Virus record (IMG/VR): IMGVR_UViG_3300033067_000976
Coordinates: 1 to 38,090 of that record
Strand: one strand, 5' to 3'
DNA: 38,090 nt
DNA from: a virus
Lineage: Duplodnaviria; Caudoviricetes
Shown: piece by piece, positions 3,052 to 36,940 of the stretch
Layout: each line of letters begins with the position of its first letter
How positions within the stretch are numbered: position 1 is the stretch's first letter
Made by a program: the position numbers and the translations under genes
The notes under the pieces: generated by a model
Databases searched by the model: none
Told to the model about the DNA's origin: nothing
The model's input: the letters and a program-made list of their open reading frames with translations, nothing else

Positions 3052-3297
3052 TTACTCTGTGGAAAACTTTTGCACTTCGATGTTCCGATAAATCCGACCG
3101 CGCTTTTTGATCCAGCCTTTTGCTTCGAGCGTGTCCAGAAACTTTTTTGCGTTCTGCCGTGAGTACTGGAAGTGCTCGGCTATCTCTTCCTGAGTGGGCG
3201 CCGAGTCGTGCTCTCTCTCGTAGGCTATGACAAACTCGAGCACGTCACGCTGCCCCTGGCTTAGTATCTTTTTTTGTTTATTCAGTATGCGTTTCAT
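3052..3297 (-). CDS. LexA-type winged-HTH DNA-binding protein without peptidase domain
   Basis: LSQGQRDVLEFVIAY..EH..APTQEEIAEHFQYSRQNAKKFLDTLEAKGWI matches the LexA N-terminal domain. Start reassigned to ATG 3297, which has an AGGAG RBS. Confidence 0.85.
   Translation of the reverse strand: MKRILNKQKKILSQGQRDVLEFVIAYEREHDSAPTQEEIAEHFQYSRQNAKKFLDTLEAKGWIKKRGRIYRNIEVQKFSTE
3058..3066 (-). promoter_or_regulatory. DnaA box (TTTTCCACA) just upstream of a promoter -35
   Basis: Matches consensus TTWTNCACA and lies 8 nt from the -35 at 3044-3049. Confidence 0.5.
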
Positions 3298-3430
3298 TTT
3301 TTCTCCTTTCCTCACAATCCTCACAGTATGGTGTGTGCCGTGCTGAATATCCCACTATCTCGCCGCCGCACTCTGTGCACTTACCATCCCACCACCATTT
3401 CACCTTTTGCCACAACTTGGATACTTTCAT
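3278..3430 (-). CDS. 50-aa zinc-ribbon protein (below the ORF-track cutoff)
   Basis: Translated by hand: MKVSKLWQKVKWWWDGKCTECGGEIVGYSARHTPYCEDCEERRKNETHTE. Two CxxC motifs; fills the gap between neighbours. Confidence 0.75.
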   Translation of the reverse strand: MKVSKLWQKVKWWWDGKCTECGGEIVGYSARHTPYCEDCEERRKNETHTE

Positions 3431-3764: not shown

Positions 3765-4016
3765 TTATAAGTTAAATGTACTACTTCTACTGCCCCCGTG
3801 TAAGCCTCCATTTTGCCCTATGCTGGTTTTATCGCCCGGGCCGCCCACTACTCCATCATCTGCGGTATCGTTGCTGCATGCGCCCTCCCAGCCTATACAC
3901 CGGCCGTTTCTGTCCCGGGGCCCGGGTGTGCCGCATGATATGCAGTTCCCGTAGTTTTGCTGACTAATATCTTTCGGTTTCCGGTATCCAGGTACCGGTG
4001 TCGCTTTGGCTGTCAT
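3765..4016 (-). CDS. Cys/Gly-rich small protein, putative Zn-binding
   Basis: CISC...C....C, in operon orientation. Confidence 0.6.
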   Translation of the reverse strand: MTAKATPVPGYRKPKDISQQNYGNCISCGTPGPRDRNGRCIGWEGACSNDTADDGVVGGPGDKTSIGQNGGLHGGSRSSTFNL

Positions 4017-4266
4017 TGGTTGGTTCCTTTCGTGCCATCCACATAAACATTTTACCCGGCTCCCTGGCCGGTGTTATGCGGTCTTTAATGTTTCCTAAAA
4101 TGTACCGCGCTTTGTCGGTCCCTATTCGCTTGATCACTCCGAGGAACATCCCGAATTTCTTCGGCTCCTGACAGAAGTCTGCTATCTCTTTTGCCAGCAT
4201 GTGGTCCTCGGAGTGTAGGTTCGGCTGGCGCTTTATTTTTTTATACCTGTCCAGATCGATTTCCAT
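3964..4266 (-). CDS. Small helical protein resembling the C-terminal domain of replication-organiser proteins
   Basis: LAKEIADF.....F..VIKRIG......IL..IKD...AREPGKMFMW pattern. Function inferred only. Confidence 0.55.
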   Translation of the reverse strand: MEIDLDRYKKIKRQPNLHSEDHMLAKEIADFCQEPKKFGMFLGVIKRIGTDKARYILGNIKDRITPAREPGKMFMWMARKEPTNDSQSDTGTWIPETERY

Positions 4267-5281: not shown

Positions 5282-5474
5282 TGGGTTGATCCTTTGCGCT
5301 CCCCCCGAGCTTAGTTTTTTGTTTTTGTTTTTGTTCGTGTGCTGCAAAATCGTAGTTACTGCCTGGGCAGAAGACTTGGCCGTCTGGTCCCGGGCCGTGG
5401 GCTACTATCTTGCGTTCTACCACCGCGGTATTTTTTCCGCAGCGCTTGCATACTATGGCATCTGGTTTTGGCAT
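5256..5474 (-). CDS. Small Zn-binding protein
   Basis: CKRC...H...CPGS (C2HC). Confidence 0.65.
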   Translation of the reverse strand: MPKPDAIVCKRCGKNTAVVERKIVAHGPGPDGQVFCPGSNYDFAAHEQKQKQKTKLGGSAKDQPNVNIRQAQ

Positions 5475-5659
5475 ATTCCTAGCTCCTGTATGGCCTTGTG
5501 TCGGGCGTGCTCTCGGCTGACGGCGTTTATAATGCCGGTCCGATTTTGCATTTCCTTATCATGGTCCATACGCTCTAATTGGAAGAGGTTGGTGTACCTC
5601 TTTACCTCGACCTTGCCTTGGCGGCTTAAGTAGCCGACCCATACTCCTTGTTGTTGCAT
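5453..5659 (-). CDS. Hypothetical protein, first gene of the early operon
   Basis: Start moved to ATG 5659 because the longer ORF would run through the promoter at 5715-5743. Confidence 0.65.
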   Translation of the reverse strand: MQQQGVWVGYLSRQGKVEVKRYTNLFQLERMDHDKEMQNRTGIINAVSREHARHKAIQELGICQNQMP

Positions 5660-5714
5660 GCTTTTGTTTTCTTTACTTATTTTTTGCCGGCCCTTTTTTG
5701 TAGCCTGCACCAGT

Positions 5715-5743
5715 AGTATAATCGATTTCCGTTCAGGTGTCAA
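5715..5743 (-). promoter_or_regulatory. Strong sigma70 promoter for the early operon
   Basis: Minus strand TTGACA-17 nt-TATACT. Confidence 0.85.
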
Positions 5744-5897
5744 GTCGTGTTGCAATTACCTGCACATATTTGTACGGTTTTTCTAAATTTGTGCATGGTC
5801 CGTAATTCTTCCCCTGAATATGGCTTAGTCTTGGTGTACAGTTTAATTACGGATTGTTCGGTTTGTGCGCGCCTCCGTAAAATACCGAACGCCGATC

Positions 5898-5919
5898 ATT
5901 TTGCCGGCGCCGGCAAAAT
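5898..5919. repeat. Perfect 22-bp palindrome
   Basis: ATTTTGCCGGC|GCCGGCAAAAT. Confidence 0.9.
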
Positions 5920-5932
5920 AATACCGTTTTAC

Positions 5933-6065
5933 TTTTCCCTAGGTTGTCCCCAGGTTATCCACAATCGTTATTTCCAATTCCCCTTTAGTTAAAGCCATAA
6001 TTACAGAGTTATGCACTTATCCACCGTGCTTACTATTACAATATTTATATTTCTTAAGAAAATAC
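5933..6065 (+). other. oriC-like replication origin (DnaA boxes, DnaA-trios, AT-rich tract)
   Basis: TTTTCCCTA 5933, TTGTCCCCA 5944, TTATCCACA 5955 (11-nt phasing). TTATGCACT 6009 overlaps TTATCCACC 6017, followed by GTGCT, TACTATTACAAT and an AT-rich run. Confidence 0.7.
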
Positions 6066-6112
6066 ACCTCGAACTATGTACGAGGTATAGTAGGGTTTTG
6101 GAGCGGGCGCCG

Positions 6113-6141
6113 TTGATTTAATTTTCATATTGTGCTGTAAT
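6113..6141 (+). promoter_or_regulatory. Candidate plus-strand sigma70 promoter
   Basis: TTGATT-17 nt-TGTAAT with an extended -10 TG. Confidence 0.45.
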
Positions 6142-6147
6142 ACTGTT

Positions 6148-6380
6148 CATACCAGTACCTCTGGTTCTCATGGACCGCTTCGTATGGGTCGGCTGCGTTG
6201 CACAGTTCGCCACCGCTGCGACTTTCCCTCCCTGTTGGTAGTTTGAGCCGTTCCGGATATTACCGGCGCGCTACGGTCAAAATATCGCTTTTCCAGTACC
6301 TGCTTTATGCGCGTTAAAATTGGAATACTCGAAGCCATGAGAAAAGCCCACCTATTCGCGAGATGGTGGGCTTTTGTTTT
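6148..6380 (+). ncRNA. Candidate structured non-coding RNA (~230 nt), family unknown
   Basis: Closing stem TTCTCATGG 6165-6173 / CCATGAGAA 6335-6343, three internal stems with plus-strand G.U pairs, promoter upstream and terminator downstream. Confidence 0.5.
6342..6380. terminator. Bidirectional intrinsic terminator
   Basis: AAAAGCCCACC...GGTGGGCTTTTGTTTT. Confidence 0.8.
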
Positions 6381-6443
6381 GGGTATGGGTACCCTTGGGT
6401 AGGATTGTTGGCGGGGCTCGCATAGGCGGGCAAAGTTGTGGAG

Positions 6444-6518
6444 CTATCTCCGTTTGTGGTTTCGGTTACGTCGTAACCAGAATAGAAAGACCCGCCGCAT
6501 ATAAGGGCTGTACCTCAT
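6444..6518 (-). CDS. Candidate 24-aa Arg-rich peptide
   Basis: MRYSPYMRRVFLFWLRRNRNHKRR, preceded by GAGGAG and an A/C-rich leader, lying between two terminators. Confidence 0.45.
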   Translation of the reverse strand: MRYSPYMRRVFLFWLRRNRNHKRR

Positions 6519-6585
6519 GGTTGTCTCCTCTTTTGTTTTGTGATATGTTGGTTTTGTTGCATGTCATTTTGCTAGTGCATAAATG

Positions 6586-6621
6586 TATAAAACCCGCCCC
6601 AAAATTAGGGCGGGTTTTATA
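6586..6621 (-). terminator. Intrinsic terminator closing the late operon (potentially bidirectional)
   Basis: TATAAAACCCGCCC-8 nt-GGGCGGGTTTTATA immediately after the holin stop. Confidence 0.85.
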
Positions 6622-6873
6622 TTACCGCTTGAGCTGTGGAGGTGTGTCGTAGGTGAACCTGCCGAGCATGGTCAGCTTCTGCTCGCGCTTCTGCTTTACC
6701 ATGGTATAAATCGTTATTGCAAACGATGCCAGGATACCTACTGCAGCTGTAGCACTTGCTGCCTGAGCCCGGAGGTCGTCAGTTACAGCTACTCCCAGGA
6801 TTGGGAGAACCAAGAGCACCAGCTCAATTATGAGCTTTACAATCTTGGCTACGTACTCGCTTGAGTATTCCAT
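6622..6873 (-). CDS. Putative holin
   Basis: 83 aa, two hydrophobic helices, basic C-terminus, next to the lysin. Confidence 0.65.
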   Translation of the reverse strand: MEYSSEYVAKIVKLIIELVLLVLPILGVAVTDDLRAQAASATAAVGILASFAITIYTMVKQKREQKLTMLGRFTYDTPPQLKR

Positions 6874-6903: not shown

Positions 6904-8463
6904 TTATAACTCAGTTAGTGGCACACTGCCATTTGGATCTAATTTAAACGCTCCCGCTAGTACATTTTTTTGGTTCTGATCTGAGAGCTTCAAATAGAAT
7001 ATTACGGTTCTGTTTTCTATAGCCGGCATGTTGGTGTACACAAATCCGCGCTCTGCTAGTTTCGGTATGTCATTGGCTTGGCCTGGCACTACCTTTGGCG
7101 TCTTGAACATATCGGACACTTCATCCCACCGGGCTGCGGTTGGAATCTTTATGTACAACACCTGCAGCGGGCTTGCGGGATCCTTTGCGAATCCTACGTC
7201 CGGCTCATCCGTGCTGTGCACATACGCCATTGGGTTTACGAAATTGCTGAAGCCTGGGTTTGTTACCCCGTTGATGGTAATGCCCCAGTGGGTGTGTGGC
7301 CCAGTTACTTTTCCGGTCTTACCCATCTTGCCTATAACCTGCGCTCTCTGTACTTGGTCGCCTACTCCCACGTTGCCGGAGTCCAGGTGGTTGTAGTGGC
7401 TTGTGCCCCATGCGTGCTGGATGATTACAGTATTCCCCAGGCTTGCGCCACGGTTGCCGGAGTATATAACTTTCCCGGCGTCACACGCTTCTACTGGGTC
7501 GCCTATTTTTCCATTCTTTCCGTTTTTGCAATCTACGCCCGGGTGACCTTTCAGGCCGCGGTTTGCGTAGTACATACCTGGCTGGTCCGGGTCTTTAAAA
7601 TCTTCCCCGAACGCCTGGATCAAGTAGAAATCTTTAAACGGTAAGTGCAGGTCGGCCGGAGCTCCTACTGTTACTGCTGACTCCACAAAGTCCACATCTG
7701 CGAGTGCCTCATAGAATGGCGTTGTAGCTTTTATGTAACAGTAGCCCTCTACTCCAAAGTTTGCGGACCAGGAGTTTTGCACTTGGAACCAGAGCTCACC
7801 GTTTTCCGTTTTCCATCCGACAATCAACATGCGATGGAGTCCTGCGCTGCCGCTGGTATCAAGTACGTTGCCCTTTGCGTCGGTTGCAAAGTAATTGCTT
7901 GGGCAGTTAAATGTCACAGTCACCGGCGTCTCGTGCTCCGTGAGTAAATCTCGTACGTGATCTATGGTGCTCGCCCATACGTACCCTGTGCTCCGGTGTT
8001 GGAACGCGTCAGCCAACAGTATCTCTTCTACGTCGGCCGGGATTTCTATAAATTCTGCATGGTTCGAGTACGGCGTGTTTAGTATCCCTTTGCGCGGTAC
8101 TCCATAGTCGGTCCGGATCTTGGCCGCTATGGCTGGGTAGGTTCCCTCCTGGCCTGGCTGGCCGTCCATGCGTTTACAGAGTGCATACAGCGCCCGGTAG
8201 TCACCCTCGAACGGTCTGCCCTCGTCTTTCTCCTGGTACTCACATTCTTTTGCATGTGAGGCTCCCACACAGGATCCATAGTCCTGGTTTGTTATGCCCA
8301 GGCTCTTGTCGAACAAGCTAAAATTCTCCGGGTATACTTTCGCCGCGGTTACCGTTGCTGGTACTAGCGAGTCGTACCGGATCCTACGTGGATCCGGTGG
8401 ACTTGCCTTTGCTCCCAGCTGGTGGTTTGGTACTTGAGTGGTCGTTGCTAACTTTTTACTCAT
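6904..8463 (-). CDS. Modular lysin: papain-like C1 peptidase + M23 endopeptidase + C-terminal domain
   Basis: C1: NQDYGSCV, HRMLIVGW, VQNSW. M23: GHPGVD, YNHL, GPHTH. Confidence 0.85.
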   Translation of the reverse strand: MSKKLATTTQVPNHQLGAKASPPDPRRIRYDSLVPATVTAAKVYPENFSLFDKSLGITNQDYGSCVGASHAKECEYQEKDEGRPFEGDYRALYALCKRMDGQPGQEGTYPAIAAKIRTDYGVPRKGILNTPYSNHAEFIEIPADVEEILLADAFQHRSTGYVWASTIDHVRDLLTEHETPVTVTFNCPSNYFATDAKGNVLDTSGSAGLHRMLIVGWKTENGELWFQVQNSWSANFGVEGYCYIKATTPFYEALADVDFVESAVTVGAPADLHLPFKDFYLIQAFGEDFKDPDQPGMYYANRGLKGHPGVDCKNGKNGKIGDPVEACDAGKVIYSGNRGASLGNTVIIQHAWGTSHYNHLDSGNVGVGDQVQRAQVIGKMGKTGKVTGPHTHWGITINGVTNPGFSNFVNPMAYVHSTDEPDVGFAKDPASPLQVLYIKIPTAARWDEVSDMFKTPKVVPGQANDIPKLAERGFVYTNMPAIENRTVIFYLKLSDQNQKNVLAGAFKLDPNGSVPLTEL

Positions 8464-11400
8464 TTGTGTTTTCTCCCTGGTTCTGACCTCCGTTCAGATC
8501 CAATTTAATATTGTCTCCTGGCTTTAGTGGCACACCCCGGATTGTCTCCAGGTAGTACCGATATGCTCCTCCCAGTCTTTGCCGCTGCTCTGCATTTAAC
8601 CAGAGCAAAAACTTTTTGCGATCATTCTTGCTTGGATCCGTGGCACCCTTGGAAAGTCCGTAGAGCGGATCAGCTGCATCAAGCGATTTGTCCAGGTCTT
8701 TCGGACTTACTCCTAAATCTCCGAGTTTCTTCAGCTGAGCGGCCGCTGTTTTGCTGTCGCCGTATTTGAGTGCTGTCTTGTAGTCTCTGAACGCTTCACT
8801 GCGTGGTGTTGAGTAGCTGCTGTCTCCCTCTCGGCCGAGCTCTTTTTCCATAAACTGCCGCTTCAAACTTTGGATCTGATCGTATGCTATGGAGTCCGGG
8901 TCGTAGCTGGTAAATATTGTATCTTTCCAGCTATCTCCATAGCCGCGTATGGGTTTGCCATTTAGCATTCTGTATTCTGTGTCGAGACTAAACGCGCCGG
9001 CCAGGTTCTGCCACGGATCCCTCACTACTCTCGGGTTGAATACGTCTGGGAAGAAGCTGCGCTTGGATAGAAATTCGACCGGGGTTTTAATTGCCGGCGT
9101 CACGCCCTGTAGTACTTTGTTCACCGGAGCTTTAAGTCGGTTCTTTATGATTGTCTCCATATCCAGCTGGCCATCATTCAGCTGCTGCAGCTCGGTCGGG
9201 AATTGGTTCAAACCGAACCACTCCACAAAATCTGCCAGGGAGGATTGCAATCGCATGATCCGCACTTCTCCGTTTTTGTCTTTACCGAGGTTAATGTGCA
9301 GCCGGCGCCGGTCGTAGTCTGAGAGCAGTGCCTCATCCTCTCCGTGGAACATTTGGTTGTACAGTTGCATCGCTCCCCAGACTGCAGCAACGCGGACCAG
9401 AAACGCTGTTAAGTTAAAGCTAAACTTTACACCCGTGCTCGCTACTATACGCGCGCCACCTGCAGCGCCGCTCCATCCGCTCTTGCGCTCGCCTCCGGAT
9501 CCTCCGGTATAAAATGCATTTTTGAATAACCGCTGGTAGCGTACAAAGTTTACTTCCATCCAGGAGTAGAACGGTATCAGTGTTTGCCTGAGCTCTTTTC
9601 CTGTTGCGGATAGTGCCGCGTAGTCCCCCAGTAATTCCCGGGAAAGTTTGGCCGCTTTATCTTTTGGATCCGTGAGTGCATTAATCTCGGCCGGGATACT
9701 CGCCCCGTAGTTCTTCAGCGGCCGTGTGCCTGCAGCCTGGACCTGCTCGAGATATTTTAAATATGCTGCGTAACGGAATATCTGCTCTCTAAAATTCGAG
9801 AAGTTTTTGACTGCATTCCAATATCCGGATATTACTCCGAATCCCTTTTTGGCTATGGAGCTCTTTTGCGATTCCACCTGGCTCTTAAATATTTTTAGAG
9901 TGCTGATGTCTGGGATTTCCTGCGCGGTGATATTGCTCTCGAGTCCACCTCTGTCAAAGAAGTCTTGCATGTCCGGGCTCATGGCCTTGTTCCCGTAGTA
10001 CACATCGTAGAGCTCGCTTACTGCGCGTTTTACTTTGGTGAGTACCCGGGGGTTGCCGGCAATGAGTGCGTCCATATCACCCACAAAGTTTTGCAGGTTG
10101 TATCTGATTGCCCGGCGTGGGTTAAAGAGCACCCATACTTTCCACATGCTGGTTAGTTCTCTGGTAAATTTCTTCAGCGCAAATTCGTCCCTAAACTTTA
10201 CCAGCTCGTTCAATGTGGCCGCGACTTCATCCACCAGCGCAAACTCTTCATTCGGCCCGCCAAGTACTGTTACATTTCGGAGCTCCTCTTTGGTAATCTC
10301 CAAGCTTTCCACTGCGTCGCTCATGAGCTGCTTGGCCAGCCGTTCCGGAATCGAGTTTGCCCGGTAGAAAACATTGCCCTCTTTTGGCTGCCATGTGCTG
10401 TACCCTGCCGGGATGAAATCGTGCCAGTCGACTGGTGGGTGGCCGGCGCGGATCTGGTCGCCTATCTTCCGTGCTATTTCATTCGTGGCTTTGCCCAGGC
10501 GGGTACTGTTATCTCCCACCGTGAACTTTTCCTCAATCATCCTGGCTGCTTTTATAAGCTCATCTTCAGTGGCCAGCGGTCCTTTGTCTTGGTCAAAGTT
10601 TACAGTCCCATCGAGTGCGGCATTTACCTGCTTCAGTGTGTCTTGTATTACCGGCTTTATGTTGTGCGGCGACTGCTTGACCGACTCTATCACTTTGGCC
10701 GTTTCAATATCTACCATCCCTTGTGCCATCACCTCAAATTCTGCCTGGAGGTAATCGGAGTTTATATCCAGCTCGGATCCGTGGCGTTGCTTTTGGTAGC
10801 CGCGCTTTACTACCCGGAGTCGCTCGCCGGTTCCTTTCACCCTGAGTGGATCCTGCGCGTAGGAGATAACCTGGTGGCGGAAGTAATCCTCTTTCACCTG
10901 GTCCTTGGTTAGCACTTTGTATTTCACTAAGTCTTGCTGCAGCGCTTGCATCATGGTTGCCCGGCGTCCGAGGGCTGTCGCCACATCCGGGTTTGCTTGG
11001 ATGTATCGATTTACTGTTTCGATATCCACTTCCACCGCTTCAGGAGTAAATCCGAACGGAAGCTTCCGGCCGGCGGCAGCCTCCCGGGAGAAGTCGTCGA
11101 GCATTATTTTGCGGGTTAACAAATCCATTTTCTTCGGCCCTAAGTCACCCACTACTGCCTGCAGCATGCGCACTGCTTTGTCTGCCATTATTTCTTTTGC
11201 ACTCTGGTGGTGGCGTAGGAGCTCACGGAGTGGCGCAAACTCGGCGGTCTTGGGCATATGCTTATATTCCCGAGTGAAGCTCCGAAATGTTTCCGCAATA
11301 TATTCTTTTAGCCTGGCCGCCCTCGACGTCTGATCACCCTTTAGTCCTTTGCTTGCCTGGTAGCGGGCCTCTACGTTTTCGTCACTGAAGCGGATCTCCC

Positions 11401-14400
11401 CCTCCATGCTTGATGCTCCCGGGCGCTTGATTGTATCGTCCACAGCGGGCCGTTTAAACTTAGCCCTGTCTTCCACCTGCAGCCCAATGCTAGGCGCCGG
11501 CACTTCGCCTATGCGCTCGTTGGTAACTTCTGCGAGTGCCTGGCTGGCCGCTCTGAGTGAGTCCGCCGGCGTTTCGATCGGCTGGTCTGCGCGCCTGAGC
11601 AATACTTCCGTTTCTTGGTTTGGCATCTTCGGGAACGGATTCATTGTGCCCGGTATCTCACTAAACCGCGGTACTGCATTGTCGTAGTAAATTACCCGGT
11701 CCAGCACCTCCGGAGTTAGTTCTAATTCCTGTAGTGGCCGGTCACCCCTGGCAAAATACTCATCCGGTTTTACTGCCCAGGAGCTGCCCTGCAGGTCACC
11801 ATAGCGGTATATTTTCTTAATACCATCTTTCTGCAACTGGTCCCTGGATATTGCAGCTATCTCTTTTGCCACTGCCGGGCTCTCTGTTATTGCTTTGGTT
11901 AGTTGCCGATATGCATTTTTTATATTCTCATCATCTCCCGCTAATTTAAACGCGCGGAGAGAGTCAATCATTTTCTCTACCTGGTCGCCCCATTCTTCAG
12001 TGATTTGTTCTATCTTTACCTCTGGGGCAGTTACGTTTTCAGCCATTACTTTTTTCACGGCTGCAGTCACTAATTTTGTTGGCTTCAGCTCAGAGCGTTT
12101 CATAGTTGCCGGTTCCAACTTTGACGTGGCGAGTGTGTTCTTCTCCAGTTTCCCATCAACACCCTGAATCCTGAATCCCTGGACTGTCTCCTCAGTTGCG
12201 CCGGTCGCAATGAAAGCCCCACCGTCCGAGGTTGTATATACACCTCCGAATGGGTAGGTGCTACGGCCTTGTTTAGCGTTTTCAATTAAGATCTGTTTTT
12301 GTGTTTTGGTGAACTTTGCCGGCTCTGTGTTCTGTGCTTCGAGCAGCGGATCCGTTACACGCCTGGACGCTCCAAACGCCTGGACCGCCTGGACTTTGTC
12401 CTTTGGTGTAATTTTTGTTTCAAACCAGGTATTACCATATTCATCGGTAATTGTTTTTAGATCCGGGCGAATCCGCTCCAAGTACTTGTGCAGCTCAGAT
12501 TCGTAGAATTTATATATTGGATTTTCCGCATCTACTTTGGCGTTGATATCGTACGATTCCTCGTAGTTTACTATCGATGGGTTTTTTAATTTCTCAGCCA
12601 CCGTCTCGCCGGCTATGCTTCTGAGTGCCGATTCTGTGACTGCTTTAAATTTTCCATTCCCCAGGTCTTCAGTTACGTATATTACTTGTGCATCGCCCTC
12701 CGTAGATCTGACAATCTGCGCGCCTGGTTTTATATCCTCTGGCTTTACGTTCCCAGTATCTGCCGGGTCTAGTGATTCTTGGTATTTATCCCAGTTTTCC
12801 TGAGTAGTAAACTGTGTACTCTGTGTCAAGCCCTCGATTTTCATGGCGGTTTCTCCGGTTGGAAAACGTAGCCTTTTTATACTCTCGTTTGCTGCTGCCC
12901 GGATTTCTTCATTCACTATTCGTTCTTGCCACAGGTCCTCAAATGCCTTTAGCCTATCCACTTCTGCATCCCTATTTTCTATCAGCTGTTTGGTGGTACC
13001 GGCCGGCTTGACTTCTGTATTGCCAAATTTACCAGTACTGACAAGTTCATTGTTAGTACCCTCTATTGGCGTTGCAGTTTGCTTTATTCTTTCTTGTTCA
13101 ATTCTACCCCTTTGGAATAAGTCGCTTTGTATTTCAGATACTCGGCGTACACCCCCATCCGCCAGGTCTTCTGTACGTGCATGCGCAAAGTAGTGCTCTG
13201 GTGTCCCAGGCCTTGTGATTATAAAATTACCCGCTTCATCATTCGTGCTCCTTACTGATCGTTTCCAGTGTATATTCCCGGCTTTGGTCTGTATCGGACT
13301 TTCATATATATGCTCCTGATACCTCAGCTTTTTCGCATCATCTAATACTGTGATCGCACTGTAGTCTGTGTTTGGTAAACGGTTTTTTACACCCGTGGTG
13401 AAATCTTCGGTCGATGTAACTCTTGTGAGGGGTAGTAATTCGAGTTCTACTGCTTTCCCAAACTCTTCAGCGCTCACCCGCTCGCCGTCTGGGAACATGT
13501 CTAATACGCGATTAACAAGATCTCGCTCGACTTTCCGTATTTCCGGTTTGCGAGTAAGGTCTTGTATAAACTGCTTGCTGACTTTTTCTTTACCCTTTAG
13601 GTCTTCGAGGATGTTGGTTGTGAGCTGCTTTGGTCCGGCGTACCCTCGAACATTTGACTTACCGTTTGCAGCAGCACCGCGCCCTTTGGACTCAGCATTG
13701 GCCTGTGATAGGTCGGCAGCTTCAGCCCTGGCTGTGGCGAGCTCTCGTTGTTGTCGTCCATATACTTCTAATTTATTAATTGTCTCTTTAAGTTTTGAAT
13801 ATTGTACGTCCGGCTCCGCGCTGTAGGCGAACGTATAATTTGCTCCGTTTGCTAGGTTACTTTCTGCTATGTCTTTTAAATCATCAAGCGCCGTACCGCG
13901 ATACCTGTCTATCGTATTAAGTATGCGGGACTTAGTCCAGCCGCGGTTTTTGAACCACTCCGGGAATGTACTTGGTATTGCATACCACTCGCCCTGGTCA
14001 TTGCTTGCGCGTTGTCCAGCTTCGCCCCCTAGCACTTCCTCCCGCATGTTGGTTTTGATTTCTTCTTTTACCATACGGTCCACTTCCTCTTGGAGCGCTA
14101 TCTGGAATTCGCTCGCCATGTCCGCCTTTTCGTATGCAGTGGTCAAACCGTATTGCTCTTGCATAACCGTATCAAAGTTTTGCAACTCTACCGTGCCGGC
14201 TGCGTCAAACTTCTCCCGGACAAATTGCCGGATCACCTCTGCTCGGTCAAGACCGCCGGCACCAATTGGGCTTGATGCCTCTTCGGCGGCAGCCATGTTA
14301 TCAAAGTGTGAGTTATCTGCCCCGGCTTTGTATTCTTGATTGAGCTCGTTTAATAATGCCCGGCGTTCGGATAGAGTCTCGCCGTTCACGGTTGATGGGT

Positions 14401-16474
14401 GCGCTGCCAGGGGTCTTGTTGAGTGCTTATATACCACTCGTGCCAGTTCTGCCTGGAGTTGCTGCAGCTGTGGTTCCGCTGCCTGGATCCCGGCTTCGTC
14501 CCGGACTGTGCTTTCTATTTGCTGAATCTGCTGAATGATGTCGTTTGCTTCCGGTGGCAAAGTGTCCACGTTAAATGCCTGAGCGCGGGTGAGCACGTCT
14601 GCTGCCTGGGGGTGCGCCGCGGCGAACTCCTGCCTGTTTACTTCTCTACCAAACCTGGTTATTGATTTTCCGTTAGTTGCGTCGAGATGAATCTGCGCGT
14701 ATCCCTGTGCGGCCTTTGGTATCACGCTTGTTTCCCGGCTTAGGTAGTCGAGCTCTTGAGGAGTGAGCTTTGTATAAATCTTTTCACCGTTGGCTACAAC
14801 ACTGAGCACCGATGGAGCTGTGAGTTGCTCAATCGGTGGCTGTTGTACTTGTGGGATCTCTGGCCCGGCTTTTATTTGTTCCGGTTGTGCGGCTGCTACT
14901 TGTTGTTTAGTATCATTTGCTACCAGCTTCTCTACTGCAGGCGCTGCTTGGGCTATGCCGTCTTGTAGTTCTGTAATATCCGCTTGCAGCTCTGGTGTGA
15001 TGGATTTTGGCAGAGTCTTGATTGTTGCCTCGAGCTGGGTGGTTAAATGGGTCAGCCCGGCCGTATCCCGGTTTTGTATTAAAGTCTGAGCCTGAGTCGC
15101 TAGTTCCTTAAGCGCTACGCTTGCCGTTCTGCTTGCTACGTTGGTTATTTGAGGCAGGGCGGTACTTAGTGCCGTCTCGGCTGCTTTCGCCGCTCCTGTG
15201 GCCTCCTGTGGCGTCACGCTAGTGGCTGGAACCTCTGTAATTCCATTTTTTGAGGCATTCAGTGCCGGAGCCTCGCTTGCCGGTGTTCCTGCCTCATTTA
15301 CCGGCGTTGTGCGTGTTGGTTCAATCGCGGCCTCTCCGGGGACGGGAACCTTGGCCGGTGTGCCTATAAAACGTCTGGCTACTTTCGACATCATGAATCC
15401 ACCTTTGTCGGTCGGCGTTACGGTCACCAGCTGTCCGTCTTGTGTTACTCCGAATTTTGTTTGGTCCTGCAGCAGCGTTTCACCCTCTGCCAGGTGTGTA
15501 GATAAATCATTGCCGCGGGGTTTTACTGTCTCGCCTTTCACACCACCCGGTGCATTGGTTTTAATATTTCCCTCTGCATCTGTATACGCAACAGTCCCGG
15601 ATCCGCTTTTCAGCATAACCGGGGTTTGCTCATATTTAAATATTTTATTAAGTCCGCCCTGGAACTTGTTACCTACTGCTCCGACCGTTCCCACGAAAGC
15701 GCTCGATGCATTGAGCTGGTCTACCAATACGCTCCATGGGGCGAGTGCCGGGTCCCAGTGCTCATTTTCTATTTTGCTCTTTACCTGGCTTTGCGGACTC
15801 TCGAAATCCATGCCGAGTACGTGGACCTTACCTGCCTTGTTGCCAGTTATTTCTTCCTGGATACCAAGTGCAGGATTTACTACTGCGCCCAGGGTGAAGC
15901 TTCCTACTCCGCTTGCTACTTGCTTTGTCGCCCCCGGGGAGGCTTTTAAAATATCGGTATTGCTAACTTCGTTAAAACTTGGATCTTGCCCGGCCTCTTT
16001 TATTGCCTGTGGTAAATCTAACGCTGCGCCCAGTCCGGCCGCTCTGGTTAGATTGTTCAAAACATTATTTGCAATGTCTCCGCCTTTCCAGAATATATCC
16101 TTTGCTTTGTCTTTCCACCCACTCTTCTGCGGCTGTGAGTCGGCCGGATATACTGCCGGGTCGGTTTTAACCGGGACACTAGTCTGCGTTGCCGGCGGAG
16201 CTTTTGGGGGCTGGAATGTTACCTGCGTTACTTTGCCGGTTTTTCCGGTCACATTGAAAGGCTTACTAAAGTCGACCGGCCCTTGCATAGTTTCCAGCTT
16301 CTGTTTCAGCTGTCCTATGGAGTCGCTGAACTCGCTTTGGTATGCTTCTTCCGCTTGCTTTTTCTTTTTTTCGGCAGTAGTTACGCGCTCGAAGAATGTC
16401 GCCGGCGCGTTCGGGGTGGCCGGAGTCTTAGCTGCGACTCCCCCTGCTGCCCGTTCGTAGAAGCTCTGTGGCAT
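8456..16474 (-). CDS. Giant internal virion/ejection protein (large polyvalent protein, LPD38-like C-terminus)
   Basis: 2672 aa, last of the podovirus ejection-gene block. C-terminal DYAALS...LIPFYSW...P.IKTPVE pattern typical of such proteins; several internal enzyme-like modules. Confidence 0.8.
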   Translation of the reverse strand: MPQSFYERAAGGVAAKTPATPNAPATFFERVTTAEKKKKQAEEAYQSEFSDSIGQLKQKLETMQGPVDFSKPFNVTGKTGKVTQVTFQPPKAPPATQTSVPVKTDPAVYPADSQPQKSGWKDKAKDIFWKGGDIANNVLNNLTRAAGLGAALDLPQAIKEAGQDPSFNEVSNTDILKASPGATKQVASGVGSFTLGAVVNPALGIQEEITGNKAGKVHVLGMDFESPQSQVKSKIENEHWDPALAPWSVLVDQLNASSAFVGTVGAVGNKFQGGLNKIFKYEQTPVMLKSGSGTVAYTDAEGNIKTNAPGGVKGETVKPRGNDLSTHLAEGETLLQDQTKFGVTQDGQLVTVTPTDKGGFMMSKVARRFIGTPAKVPVPGEAAIEPTRTTPVNEAGTPASEAPALNASKNGITEVPATSVTPQEATGAAKAAETALSTALPQITNVASRTASVALKELATQAQTLIQNRDTAGLTHLTTQLEATIKTLPKSITPELQADITELQDGIAQAAPAVEKLVANDTKQQVAAAQPEQIKAGPEIPQVQQPPIEQLTAPSVLSVVANGEKIYTKLTPQELDYLSRETSVIPKAAQGYAQIHLDATNGKSITRFGREVNRQEFAAAHPQAADVLTRAQAFNVDTLPPEANDIIQQIQQIESTVRDEAGIQAAEPQLQQLQAELARVVYKHSTRPLAAHPSTVNGETLSERRALLNELNQEYKAGADNSHFDNMAAAEEASSPIGAGGLDRAEVIRQFVREKFDAAGTVELQNFDTVMQEQYGLTTAYEKADMASEFQIALQEEVDRMVKEEIKTNMREEVLGGEAGQRASNDQGEWYAIPSTFPEWFKNRGWTKSRILNTIDRYRGTALDDLKDIAESNLANGANYTFAYSAEPDVQYSKLKETINKLEVYGRQQRELATARAEAADLSQANAESKGRGAAANGKSNVRGYAGPKQLTTNILEDLKGKEKVSKQFIQDLTRKPEIRKVERDLVNRVLDMFPDGERVSAEEFGKAVELELLPLTRVTSTEDFTTGVKNRLPNTDYSAITVLDDAKKLRYQEHIYESPIQTKAGNIHWKRSVRSTNDEAGNFIITRPGTPEHYFAHARTEDLADGGVRRVSEIQSDLFQRGRIEQERIKQTATPIEGTNNELVSTGKFGNTEVKPAGTTKQLIENRDAEVDRLKAFEDLWQERIVNEEIRAAANESIKRLRFPTGETAMKIEGLTQSTQFTTQENWDKYQESLDPADTGNVKPEDIKPGAQIVRSTEGDAQVIYVTEDLGNGKFKAVTESALRSIAGETVAEKLKNPSIVNYEESYDINAKVDAENPIYKFYESELHKYLERIRPDLKTITDEYGNTWFETKITPKDKVQAVQAFGASRRVTDPLLEAQNTEPAKFTKTQKQILIENAKQGRSTYPFGGVYTTSDGGAFIATGATEETVQGFRIQGVDGKLEKNTLATSKLEPATMKRSELKPTKLVTAAVKKVMAENVTAPEVKIEQITEEWGDQVEKMIDSLRAFKLAGDDENIKNAYRQLTKAITESPAVAKEIAAISRDQLQKDGIKKIYRYGDLQGSSWAVKPDEYFARGDRPLQELELTPEVLDRVIYYDNAVPRFSEIPGTMNPFPKMPNQETEVLLRRADQPIETPADSLRAASQALAEVTNERIGEVPAPSIGLQVEDRAKFKRPAVDDTIKRPGASSMEGEIRFSDENVEARYQASKGLKGDQTSRAARLKEYIAETFRSFTREYKHMPKTAEFAPLRELLRHHQSAKEIMADKAVRMLQAVVGDLGPKKMDLLTRKIMLDDFSREAAAGRKLPFGFTPEAVEVDIETVNRYIQANPDVATALGRRATMMQALQQDLVKYKVLTKDQVKEDYFRHQVISYAQDPLRVKGTGERLRVVKRGYQKQRHGSELDINSDYLQAEFEVMAQGMVDIETAKVIESVKQSPHNIKPVIQDTLKQVNAALDGTVNFDQDKGPLATEDELIKAARMIEEKFTVGDNSTRLGKATNEIARKIGDQIRAGHPPVDWHDFIPAGYSTWQPKEGNVFYRANSIPERLAKQLMSDAVESLEITKEELRNVTVLGGPNEEFALVDEVAATLNELVKFRDEFALKKFTRELTSMWKVWVLFNPRRAIRYNLQNFVGDMDALIAGNPRVLTKVKRAVSELYDVYYGNKAMSPDMQDFFDRGGLESNITAQEIPDISTLKIFKSQVESQKSSIAKKGFGVISGYWNAVKNFSNFREQIFRYAAYLKYLEQVQAAGTRPLKNYGASIPAEINALTDPKDKAAKLSRELLGDYAALSATGKELRQTLIPFYSWMEVNFVRYQRLFKNAFYTGGSGGERKSGWSGAAGGARIVASTGVKFSFNLTAFLVRVAAVWGAMQLYNQMFHGEDEALLSDYDRRRLHINLGKDKNGEVRIMRLQSSLADFVEWFGLNQFPTELQQLNDGQLDMETIIKNRLKAPVNKVLQGVTPAIKTPVEFLSKRSFFPDVFNPRVVRDPWQNLAGAFSLDTEYRMLNGKPIRGYGDSWKDTIFTSYDPDSIAYDQIQSLKRQFMEKELGREGDSSYSTPRSEAFRDYKTALKYGDSKTAAAQLKKLGDLGVSPKDLDKSLDAADPLYGLSKGATDPSKNDRKKFLLWLNAEQRQRLGGAYRYYLETIRGVPLKPGDNIKLDLNGGQNQGENTNE

Positions 16475-35623: not shown

Positions 35624-36138
35624 GGTTTTATCCTTTCGTAGGCCGCCATATCTTCGGCGGTCTTTAGCTTGTGGCATGCCGGGCACAGCAATCGCATATT
35701 GTCCCAGTGGTCCTGCCCGCCGAGCACTAGCGCTTGGTGGTGGTCGCCCTCGAACGCAATGATTGGCAGCTCTACCCCGGCCGGCGTGGTCTTGCTTGCG
35801 TGCACTCCACACCTGCAGCACTCGAAGTTGTACCACTTGTGCAGGAACCTCCGGAGGCTTGTTACCCGGAGGTTGTAGCTTACCCAGCCGGTCCACATAA
35901 CGCGGCGCTTGCAGCTTGCCCCTATACCTGGGCTCTCGCTGCAGTACTGTAGTTTTGCATTATCTAAATGTTTGCCACACCACAGGCAATTTCCCCGGTT
36001 TAACTCCCTGGATGTGGTGTACCATTCTGGCCACTTCCATCCTGCTGGGAGCTCTGCTGGTGCTCCTGGTATGCGGTTGATGCTGTAGTGCCGCTTGTAC
36101 CCGAGTATTAGATTGCCTGTGGTGGGTGACTTCATCAT
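35605..36138 (-). CDS. HNH endonuclease with extra N-terminal Zn motif
   Basis: CLWC...YCS..C and CCRC...DHHQALVLGGQDHWDNMRLLCPACHKLKT. Confidence 0.9.
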   Translation of the reverse strand: MMKSPTTGNLILGYKRHYSINRIPGAPAELPAGWKWPEWYTTSRELNRGNCLWCGKHLDNAKLQYCSESPGIGASCKRRVMWTGWVSYNLRVTSLRRFLHKWYNFECCRCGVHASKTTPAGVELPIIAFEGDHHQALVLGGQDHWDNMRLLCPACHKLKTAEDMAAYERIKPWKPRR

Positions 36139-36563
36139 TTGGGTTGTAGCTTCTCCTGGTACGCTTTCAATTTATGCAGTTGTGAGAAGTCAGAGACTGT
36201 AATCCTATACCCGCCGGTCACCACATCGCTATTGAGTAGACTCTCGCCTTTCCTGTATGTCTTCTTTGTGGATGGATCAAATAAAACTTTAGTACCCTGC
36301 ATCACTATTGCATGCGTTCCTGATTTATAATTTTTGCTTTTGACGGTCGCAATCCACGGGTGGTCCTGCCAAATTGCGCCGTCCTTACCATCAAAGCCGA
36401 TAGCCAATCCGAACTGGTGCAGGAAAACGTCCCATATCCTAAACCACGCGTCGCTATGGTCATTTGGTAGTACTTCCAGTGGCAGCTCCAGGAGGGAAGC
36501 CATACACGCCGGGAAACAGTCGCCTATGATATCGCTCACAATTCTTTGCTTTTGCTCTTTCAT
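36135..36563 (-). CDS. C39-like papain-fold peptidase
   Basis: GDCFPACMASLL, HAIVM, LFDPS (Cys-His-Asp). Confidence 0.75.
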   Translation of the reverse strand: MKEQKQRIVSDIIGDCFPACMASLLELPLEVLPNDHSDAWFRIWDVFLHQFGLAIGFDGKDGAIWQDHPWIATVKSKNYKSGTHAIVMQGTKVLFDPSTKKTYRKGESLLNSDVVTGGYRITVSDFSQLHKLKAYQEKLQPK

Positions 36564-36940
36564 TTTCTTTTTATAATTACGAGTCTATGGGTGATTCGAT
36601 TGTCTTTCCATTTGCTCGGGTACTGTGGATCGAACGCCAACCTGCCAGCCTGATATACGACCGCGTGCGCGTAGGTTTTGTACTTCAGGCTGTTACCTAT
36701 CACTATGTGCGTGCCGCGTTTTGGTGGTGTGGTGCAGGTTACCCAGTAGACCAGGTATCCGTGCTTCTTAAAAAACAGCTTCAGCCGTTCGTTCCACCTT
36801 TTTCGTGGCTTCACGAAATAGGGGACCCGGTAGGGGTGCATGTTCAGTACGTATGCTACGCAATCTGTCAGACACCCCTGGGTTTCTCTAAGCCGAGTCC
36901 AATTTATTTGTCTTTGTTTTTTCTCCACTGAATTAGCCAT
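36560..36940 (-). CDS. C39-like papain-fold peptidase (second, diverged copy)
   Basis: QGCLTDCVAYVL, HAVVY, AFDP. Confidence 0.7.
   Translation of the reverse strand: MANSVEKKQRQINWTRLRETQGCLTDCVAYVLNMHPYRVPYFVKPRKRWNERLKLFFKKHGYLVYWVTCTTPPKRGTHIVIGNSLKYKTYAHAVVYQAGRLAFDPQYPSKWKDNRITHRLVIIKRK

Follow-up and report, generated by a model that had tools for sequence, protein, structure and literature searches.

A chromosome-type DnaA-box and DnaA-trio unwinding module in an uncultured tailed phage, a candidate origin for host DnaA

The window analysed here, meaning the whole stretch of DNA under study, is a linear virus record of 38,090 bases from an uncultured tailed phage. CheckV estimates the record at 81% completeness, which leaves about a fifth of the genome (19%) missing. 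No terminal repeat was found in the 38,090 bases, and an attempt to close the genome from run contigs, which reach beyond both ends of the record, did not yield a closed genome. Nearly all genes lie on the minus strand, where annotation identified HNH, terminase large subunit, portal, major capsid and tail genes, then an M23/C1 endolysin-like gene and a holin-like gene, and then a gap. Beyond the gap, also on the minus strand, come small early genes, among them a LexA-like HTH gene, a Gp3-like gene and RusA, and the missing DNA begins 1.4 kb downstream of the Gp3-like gene. The gap itself is non-coding, measures about 840 bp and is bounded by a hairpin (6586-6621) and a promoter-like site (5743-5715). 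The module described below sits in it, with late (lysis) genes on one side and early genes on the other; both flanks are phage genes, as had been stated in the original prediction. Elsewhere in the window, the gene at 6904-8463 (minus strand) encodes an endolysin-like protein in which papain-type (C1) and M23 peptidase domains are fused, and 8456-16474 (minus strand) encodes a 2672-aa protein that matched nothing in Pfam or PHROG and has 23% identity to a protein of G037. Two phrog_5845 paralogues at 36135-36940 (minus strand) form an optional module, since a contig of run X2 omits 36139-36902.

The module occupies positions 5933-6064. It had been predicted to open with three DnaA-box-like 9-mers spaced 11 nt apart, and on re-reading the sequence we found all of the predicted coordinates to be correct. 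The spacing held, and the 9-mer at 5955-5963 (plus strand), 54 bp upstream of the box pair, is the sole perfect TTATCCACA in the 38 kb. Its neighbor at 5944-5952 (plus strand, 65 bp upstream of the pair) has two mismatches to TTATCCACA. The first 9-mer (5933-5941, plus strand, 76 bp upstream) proved weak, with three mismatches to TTATCCACA and two to the relaxed TTWTNCACA, and owes its place in the module solely to its register with the two that follow; GG joins the three. The predicted overlapping pair, offset by 8 nt, is present: an upstream box at 6009-6017 (plus strand, two mismatches), in the position of Bacillus subtilis box 6, has its last base in common with a trio-proximal box at 6017-6025 (plus strand, one mismatch), in the position of box 7, which is the best-scoring site of the contig. 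The GC-rich spacer that follows had been read as 5 nt long, but it is 4 nt long (6026-6029, plus strand, three of the four bases G or C) and the trios occupy 6030-6038, because trios are published as 3'-GAT-5' on the bottom strand (accessible text of PMC10201434). Read in this frame (also in PMC10797057, in part), the minus strand carries three DnaA-trios, 3'-AAT GAT AAT-5'. On the top strand opposite there are two TnnT motifs, and a fourth trio is broken. The AT-rich tract at 6040-6064, the predicted melting region, is A or T at 23 of 25 positions (92%) and ranks in the top 0.04% of the contig's 25-mers by A+T, and the fold of the single strand over 5880-6080 is unremarkable (z -0.88). Directly after the AT-rich tract lies an inverted repeat, ACCTCG-N9-CGAGGT (6066-6086), a possible operator, for example for the LexA-like HTH protein encoded at 3052-3324.

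In B. subtilis, the last base of box 6 is also the first base of box 7, and a spacer of the GGCC type comes next. A search of the accessible text of PMC10201434 for the GGCC-type spacer returned nothing. The search rule for a basal unwinding system (BUS) given in the accessible part of PMC8287927 asks for a box no more than 16 bp from the trios with two mismatches or fewer, and a tandem second box with four or fewer; here the box at 6017 has one mismatch and lies 4 nt from the trios, and the box at 6009 has two. At least three consecutive 3'-NAN-5' are expected on the strand and side used by DnaA, and AAT, GAT and AAT are found there, with the AT-rich region (92% A+T over 6040-6064) downstream of them. 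The module has the same co-oriented pair, short spacer and three trios as the B. subtilis incC boxes 6 and 7 with their DnaA-trios, and the likeness extends to the AT-rich tract and the phased distal boxes (PMC6669920, PMC8287927, PMC10721633 and PMC10201434, each in part). Even a top-strand 9-mer, TACTATTAC, is common to the phage module and the B. subtilis sequence printed in PMC10201434. In contrast to the B. subtilis BUS, the phage module lies on a phage, has no dnaA or dnaN alongside and is known here from sequence alone; its first trio is AAT, it has three trios only, and it shows two TnnT motifs compared with five. The box-6 position is not consensus, whereas chromosomes tend to have the better of the two boxes there (accessible text of PMC8287927). 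A chromosomal oriC lies on a chromosome, typically beside dnaA and dnaN, whereas this module lies in a virus record between phage genes. The claim that a phage carries a basal unwinding module of the B. subtilis type is supported, and it gains strength from the phased distal boxes and from the match to Patescibacteria origins described below.

The module is isolated within the gap. A sigma-70-type promoter-like site on the minus strand (5715-5743), 190 bp from the first box, points away from the origin into the early genes; it has 11 of 12 consensus bases and a 17-nt spacer, and is a consensus match only. On the other side, directly behind the holin-like gene, the hairpin at 6586-6621 (minus strand) has 17-nt arms that are 94% complementary and is likely the late-operon terminator, which would shield the origin. 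A perfect 20-bp palindrome (5899-5918), 14 nt upstream of the first box, is at best doubtfully linked to the origin: it also occurs in unrelated contigs without DnaA boxes and in six of six viral matches does not travel with DnaA boxes. The palindrome region (5888-5926) encodes a short peptide motif in an ORF at 5747-5992 (plus strand), and partial copies of the palindrome lie at 5681 and 6257. No direct-repeat family other than the DnaA boxes was found within 5400-6700. The fourfold-site skew is +0.13 to the left, +0.07 to +0.02 to the right and -0.28 at 24-31 kb, and no sharp GC-skew switch was seen at the module in this 81%-complete record, in which nearly all genes are on one strand.

The window shows no enrichment of DnaA boxes taken singly (69 matches at one mismatch, compared with 58 +/- 8 by chance). 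The motifs are short and AT-rich and the raw counts of the pattern in IMG/VR are near those of a control (70 vs 55), as would be expected if the arrangement had arisen by chance. However, using a first scoring model of a tandem box plus trio, hand-weighted by the author and with the trio frame offset by one base, we found that the best site of the contig is 6017 (plus strand) at 32.9 bits, a score that none of 200 third-order Markov sequences reaches, the null maximum being 23.1 bits. A second model that credits distal boxes also ranks this site first (0 of 20 nulls). Nor is the site an assembly chimera, because run X1, possibly the source sample, yielded a 33,613-nt contig that reaches from 1314 to 34926 and takes in the site with its flanks on either side. 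A second study agrees: contigs of its runs X3 and X2, labelled a riverine metagenome, cover 5772-6214 and 5984-6610 without differences. A chance arrangement or chimera is therefore largely refuted and scarcely credible, and the module is genuine.

B. subtilis requires a distal box 44 bp or more upstream of box 6, with activity phased over three turns (accessible text of PMC6669920). The distal boxes of the phage, 54, 65 and 76 bp upstream of 6009, lie one, two and three turns beyond 44 bp and hence on the same helical face, with the viable positions being those inferred from the text of PMC6669920. In order to see whether this geometry recurs, we used an IMG/VR scan for the box pair plus trio start (70 loci) and a control with a scrambled trio start (55 loci), which dereplicated to 46 and 34 loci. 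An extra box lies within 100 nt at 26 of the 46 test loci compared with 3 of the 34 control loci, and a GC-rich spacer is present at 34 and 8, respectively. For the phasing set we kept the 36 test loci whose two boxes together have no more than two mismatches and dropped the other 10; these viral loci were chosen only on box pair and trio start. Their extra boxes are found upstream 87 times and downstream 4 times, and the co-oriented ones peak at 43, 54-57, 66, 77 and 88 bp. Once related loci were merged into 31 clusters and the phase was tested against uniform distances, 17 of the clusters had a co-oriented box at 40-90 bp, and the nearest such box keeps the 44-bp phase (mean cosine 0.56, p=3.5e-4). 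DnaA is encoded in none of 36 module-bearing viral records, 15 of which are at least 90% complete; these records, viral by IMG/VR classing, comprise 34 phasing-set loci plus L025 and L086.

These observations bear on two other readings of the site. It could be a DnaA sink or a regulatory site at which no replication starts, titrating host DnaA and so stalling chromosome initiation, or coupling the promoter at 5743 to the DnaA level. The near-consensus promoter-like site only 190 bp from the first box would fit this, and T5-like phages provide a precedent, as they carry DnaA-box arrays in the injection-stop region that are not thought to be origins (bioRxiv 10.1101/866236, in part). Yet boxes would suffice for a sink, and this site, like the other viral loci, also retains features that serve unwinding: trios, a GC spacer, an AT-rich tract, extra boxes on the upstream side only, and helical phasing. 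Just a single perfect box is present, and we consider a sink or regulatory site improbable. The second reading, a captured piece of host oriC carried along as a decaying passenger, could account for the degenerate state of two distal boxes and of the box-6 position, for the presence of at least one host-type gene on the phage and for the lack of the module in distant relatives. As no dnaA or dnaN remnant lies nearby, the arrangement of the elements is undamaged and 31 unrelated clusters of viral loci repeat the layout, we regard a decaying passenger as very improbable.

Several of the matched records have features of their own. A gokushovirus with its own VP4 Rep (L393, KT264804.1) has a full phased module at 1114-1240, with distal boxes at 44, 56, 67 and 87 bp, located between VP4 and the next genes, and other Gokushovirus/Microviridae records also matched. 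Loci L067, L083 and L102 and related loci of 63-66% GC (G002, G010, G019) represent one phage family retaining the module; an HTH_36 protein and a DnaB helicase occur in G002 and G010, and the complete member G019 gave no such match. This family offers a natural test of module against initiator, because the module is kept while the initiator genes vary. In L047/L112 (G023) the module comes directly after the tail genes, near two small adjacent ORFs that by eye look toxin-antitoxin-like, a hint of a plasmid-like prophage. CP117684.1 (among L121 and L380-L392), a 592-kb Latilactobacillus record listed as a plasmid, has a module match at 1436 and is possibly a piece of chromosome. A single-box pattern was set aside, as its 65 IMG/VR loci are mostly chance and the full anatomy is present in 3. 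Compared by BLAST with annotated phages, the window module found weak matches only, and an Arthrobacter phage match was rejected as a module, having the box pair with no trios.

It had also been stated that no initiator, helicase or polymerase appears in the window. Gene annotation and family scans indeed gave no match to a Rep, helicase, loader or polymerase there, but this absence carries little weight since the record is 81% complete. In 6 of the 15 long relative loci of the Gp3-like gene, in which 52 chosen ORFs were scanned, an O-like initiator, loader or helicase is found within about 5 kb downstream of that gene. Complete viral records were scanned for four families (HTH_36, DnaB_C, AAA_25 and IstB): 5 of the 15 module-bearing ones match HTH_36, DnaB_C or AAA_25, none matches IstB, and 10 match none of the four. 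Among complete capsid relatives that lack the module, 8 of 9 are also without a match to the four families (1 of 9 has one), so missing Pfam matches are weak evidence. Nor does the module imply a virus without an initiator, because the 5 records above and the gokushovirus with VP4 carry both.

The module might therefore be auxiliary, with the phage's own initiator encoded in the missing 19% of the genome and DnaA used at this site to fire a second origin or to load the helicase, much as DnaA assists Rep in iteron plasmids. The Rep, loader and helicase genes behind the Gp3-like gene of relatives and the viral records that combine the module with a Rep or helicase speak for this, as does the finding that DnaA alone opens the P1 and F origins, aided by Rep (accessible text of PMC5043065). 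An auxiliary role is harder to reconcile with the lack of iterons beside the module (5400-6700), with the 10 complete module-bearing records that match none of the four families, and with the Gp3-like loci, including those with Rep, none of which (0 of 80; 462 kb, 29 loci of at least 5 kb) has the module in the available sequence. We consider an auxiliary role unlikely, but a serious contender.

Relatives of the phage are distant. Searches with the transglycosylase-like or endolysin gene found no close relatives in viral contigs, and a search by capsid found none in genome contigs; the capsid relatives (28-55%) have only structural genes in common with the window. Under the hand-weighted model none of 24 unselected capsid relatives has a module above 24.1 bits, and two of them beat their 25 nulls without a clean box-pair-plus-trio layout; under the second model none of 17 has the module. 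The original prediction looked to the box-trio layout in related phages, and no such conservation emerged, the distant capsid and Gp3-like relatives being without the module. The capsid and Gp3-like relatives scanned share no early genes with the window, and two module-bearing records have a distant capsid homologue. Three single-box matches in capsid relatives lie inside genes and were rejected, as was one in G044, a degenerate gap site whose score is not above the null.

Whether or not the phage has an initiator of its own, it carries a gene that points to its host. The 100-aa four-helix protein encoded at 3964-4266 (minus strand) has a homologue on Patescibacteria chromosomes, where the gene sits beside def-fmt. 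Its family has 89 representatives, the clusters nearest to it in the Atlas come from WWE3, Collierbacteria and viruses, and 17 of 20 genome loci bear the titles of Patescibacteria lineages. In all 20 loci def is right downstream of the gene, with fmt next; priA often occupies the slot next to def-fmt. The host of the phage is probably a member of the Patescibacteria, a call based on one gene at about 40-48% identity. The proposed comparison with the oriC of the predicted host proved favorable. Within the phylum of a Parcubacteria record the module pattern matches 14 of 401 genomes (reversed control 2), and 12 of the 14 matches immediately follow dnaA and share its direction, one of them being nearly equal to the window layout. 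These dnaA-dnaN intergenic origins (G231/L389, G476/L388 and others) have the same pattern and spacing, distal boxes at 45 and 52-53 bp being common, and differ in that they are chromosomal, are themselves sequence-predicted and occur in the strict form in only 14 of the 401 genomes. In the lineages that carry the 100-aa gene the module is mostly more degenerate, and for this reason the host call stops at the phylum, short of a class.

The predicted structure of the 100-aa protein has four helices (pLDDT 81), and Foldseek found nothing significant for it. A DnaD domain (2i5u) aligns with the model at Z 4.5 and rmsd 2.7 over 61 residues, at rank 15 and below unrelated folds. The Atlas gave 0.79 to DnaB_2, RepA_C and RepB_C, and Pfam, PHROG and PDB sequence scans gave no match of the DnaB_2/RepA_C type. 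A DnaD-like protein is thus a weak lead, attractive because DnaD of B. subtilis binds the strand opposite the trios (accessible text of PMC10201434). The profile of the protein found no match among module-bearing loci or capsid relatives; its only matches were L337 and L338, both without a clear module.

Reviews describe DnaA as the chromosomal initiator and as a mere assistant of Rep on plasmids, with phages such as lambda bringing their own initiator. Iteron origins of plasmids and phage-plasmids (P1, F, RK2) are likewise extrachromosomal and recruit host DnaA (PMC5043065 and PMC10797057, in part), but they need Rep and iterons, whereas the phage module has trios and is accompanied by no iterons or Rep in the 81%-complete record. 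According to the accessible text of PMC10797057, binding of DnaA to a single-stranded unwinding region has not been shown for iteron plasmid origins. For phage G, a default software prediction by Ori-Finder gives an oriC with DnaA boxes and a predicted trio; phage G differs in that it encodes its own polymerases, helicases and primases (both from the accessible part of PMC12484599). No DnaA-trio origin shown to work in a phage was found in the literature covered, which takes in few subscription papers. Within the accessible text of these sources, the phage G prediction, the T5-like box arrays and the accessory boxes of iteron plasmids are the nearest in print.

How, then, would the phage use such a module? 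Some action of DnaA on the site is very likely, if the readings that involve it are taken together. An oriC-opening layout placed between late and early genes suggests that the phage likely starts copying its genome with the host initiator, and we consider it moderately probable that the 130-bp module is the main replication origin of the phage, opened by host DnaA. By analogy with B. subtilis incC, DnaA-ATP would bind the pair at 6009/6017, and the in-phase distal boxes (5933-5963) would supply further DnaA via a loop. The DnaA oligomer would then grip the bottom strand at its three trios, capturing nucleobases of trios 1-3 (accessible text of PMC10721633), after which the AT-rich tract at 6040-6064 would melt and the host helicase could be loaded. 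The original prediction had proposed that the phage replicates as a DnaA-dependent minichromosome. A host-DnaA-driven origin is the best reading of the module; that DnaA is the sole initiator is less secure, because the record lacks about one fifth of the genome and because viruses elsewhere combine the module with a Rep or helicase of their own. For a minichromosome, in the sense of a plasmid-like prophage, no partition or integrase gene was found in the window.

A bolder proposal is that unrelated phage lineages, this phage being one of them, independently adopted a full chromosome-type origin that works with host DnaA alone and no initiator of their own, and that the host-derived protein encoded at 3964-4266 is a DnaD-like factor steering helicase loading to the phage origin. 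We put this forward as speculation that is unlikely to hold in full; if true, the 3964-4266 protein would also name a missing replication factor of Patescibacteria. If the module fires, the phage replicon would be wired to the cell-cycle initiator of its host and would compete with oriC; it would explain phage genomes without recognizable replication genes and would provide a sequence signature for origin and host prediction. Because of the phasing result, the idea of a firing module is directly testable with the existing short-oligonucleotide assay, and the phage copies would be independent natural variants of the origin in a phylum with almost no genetics.
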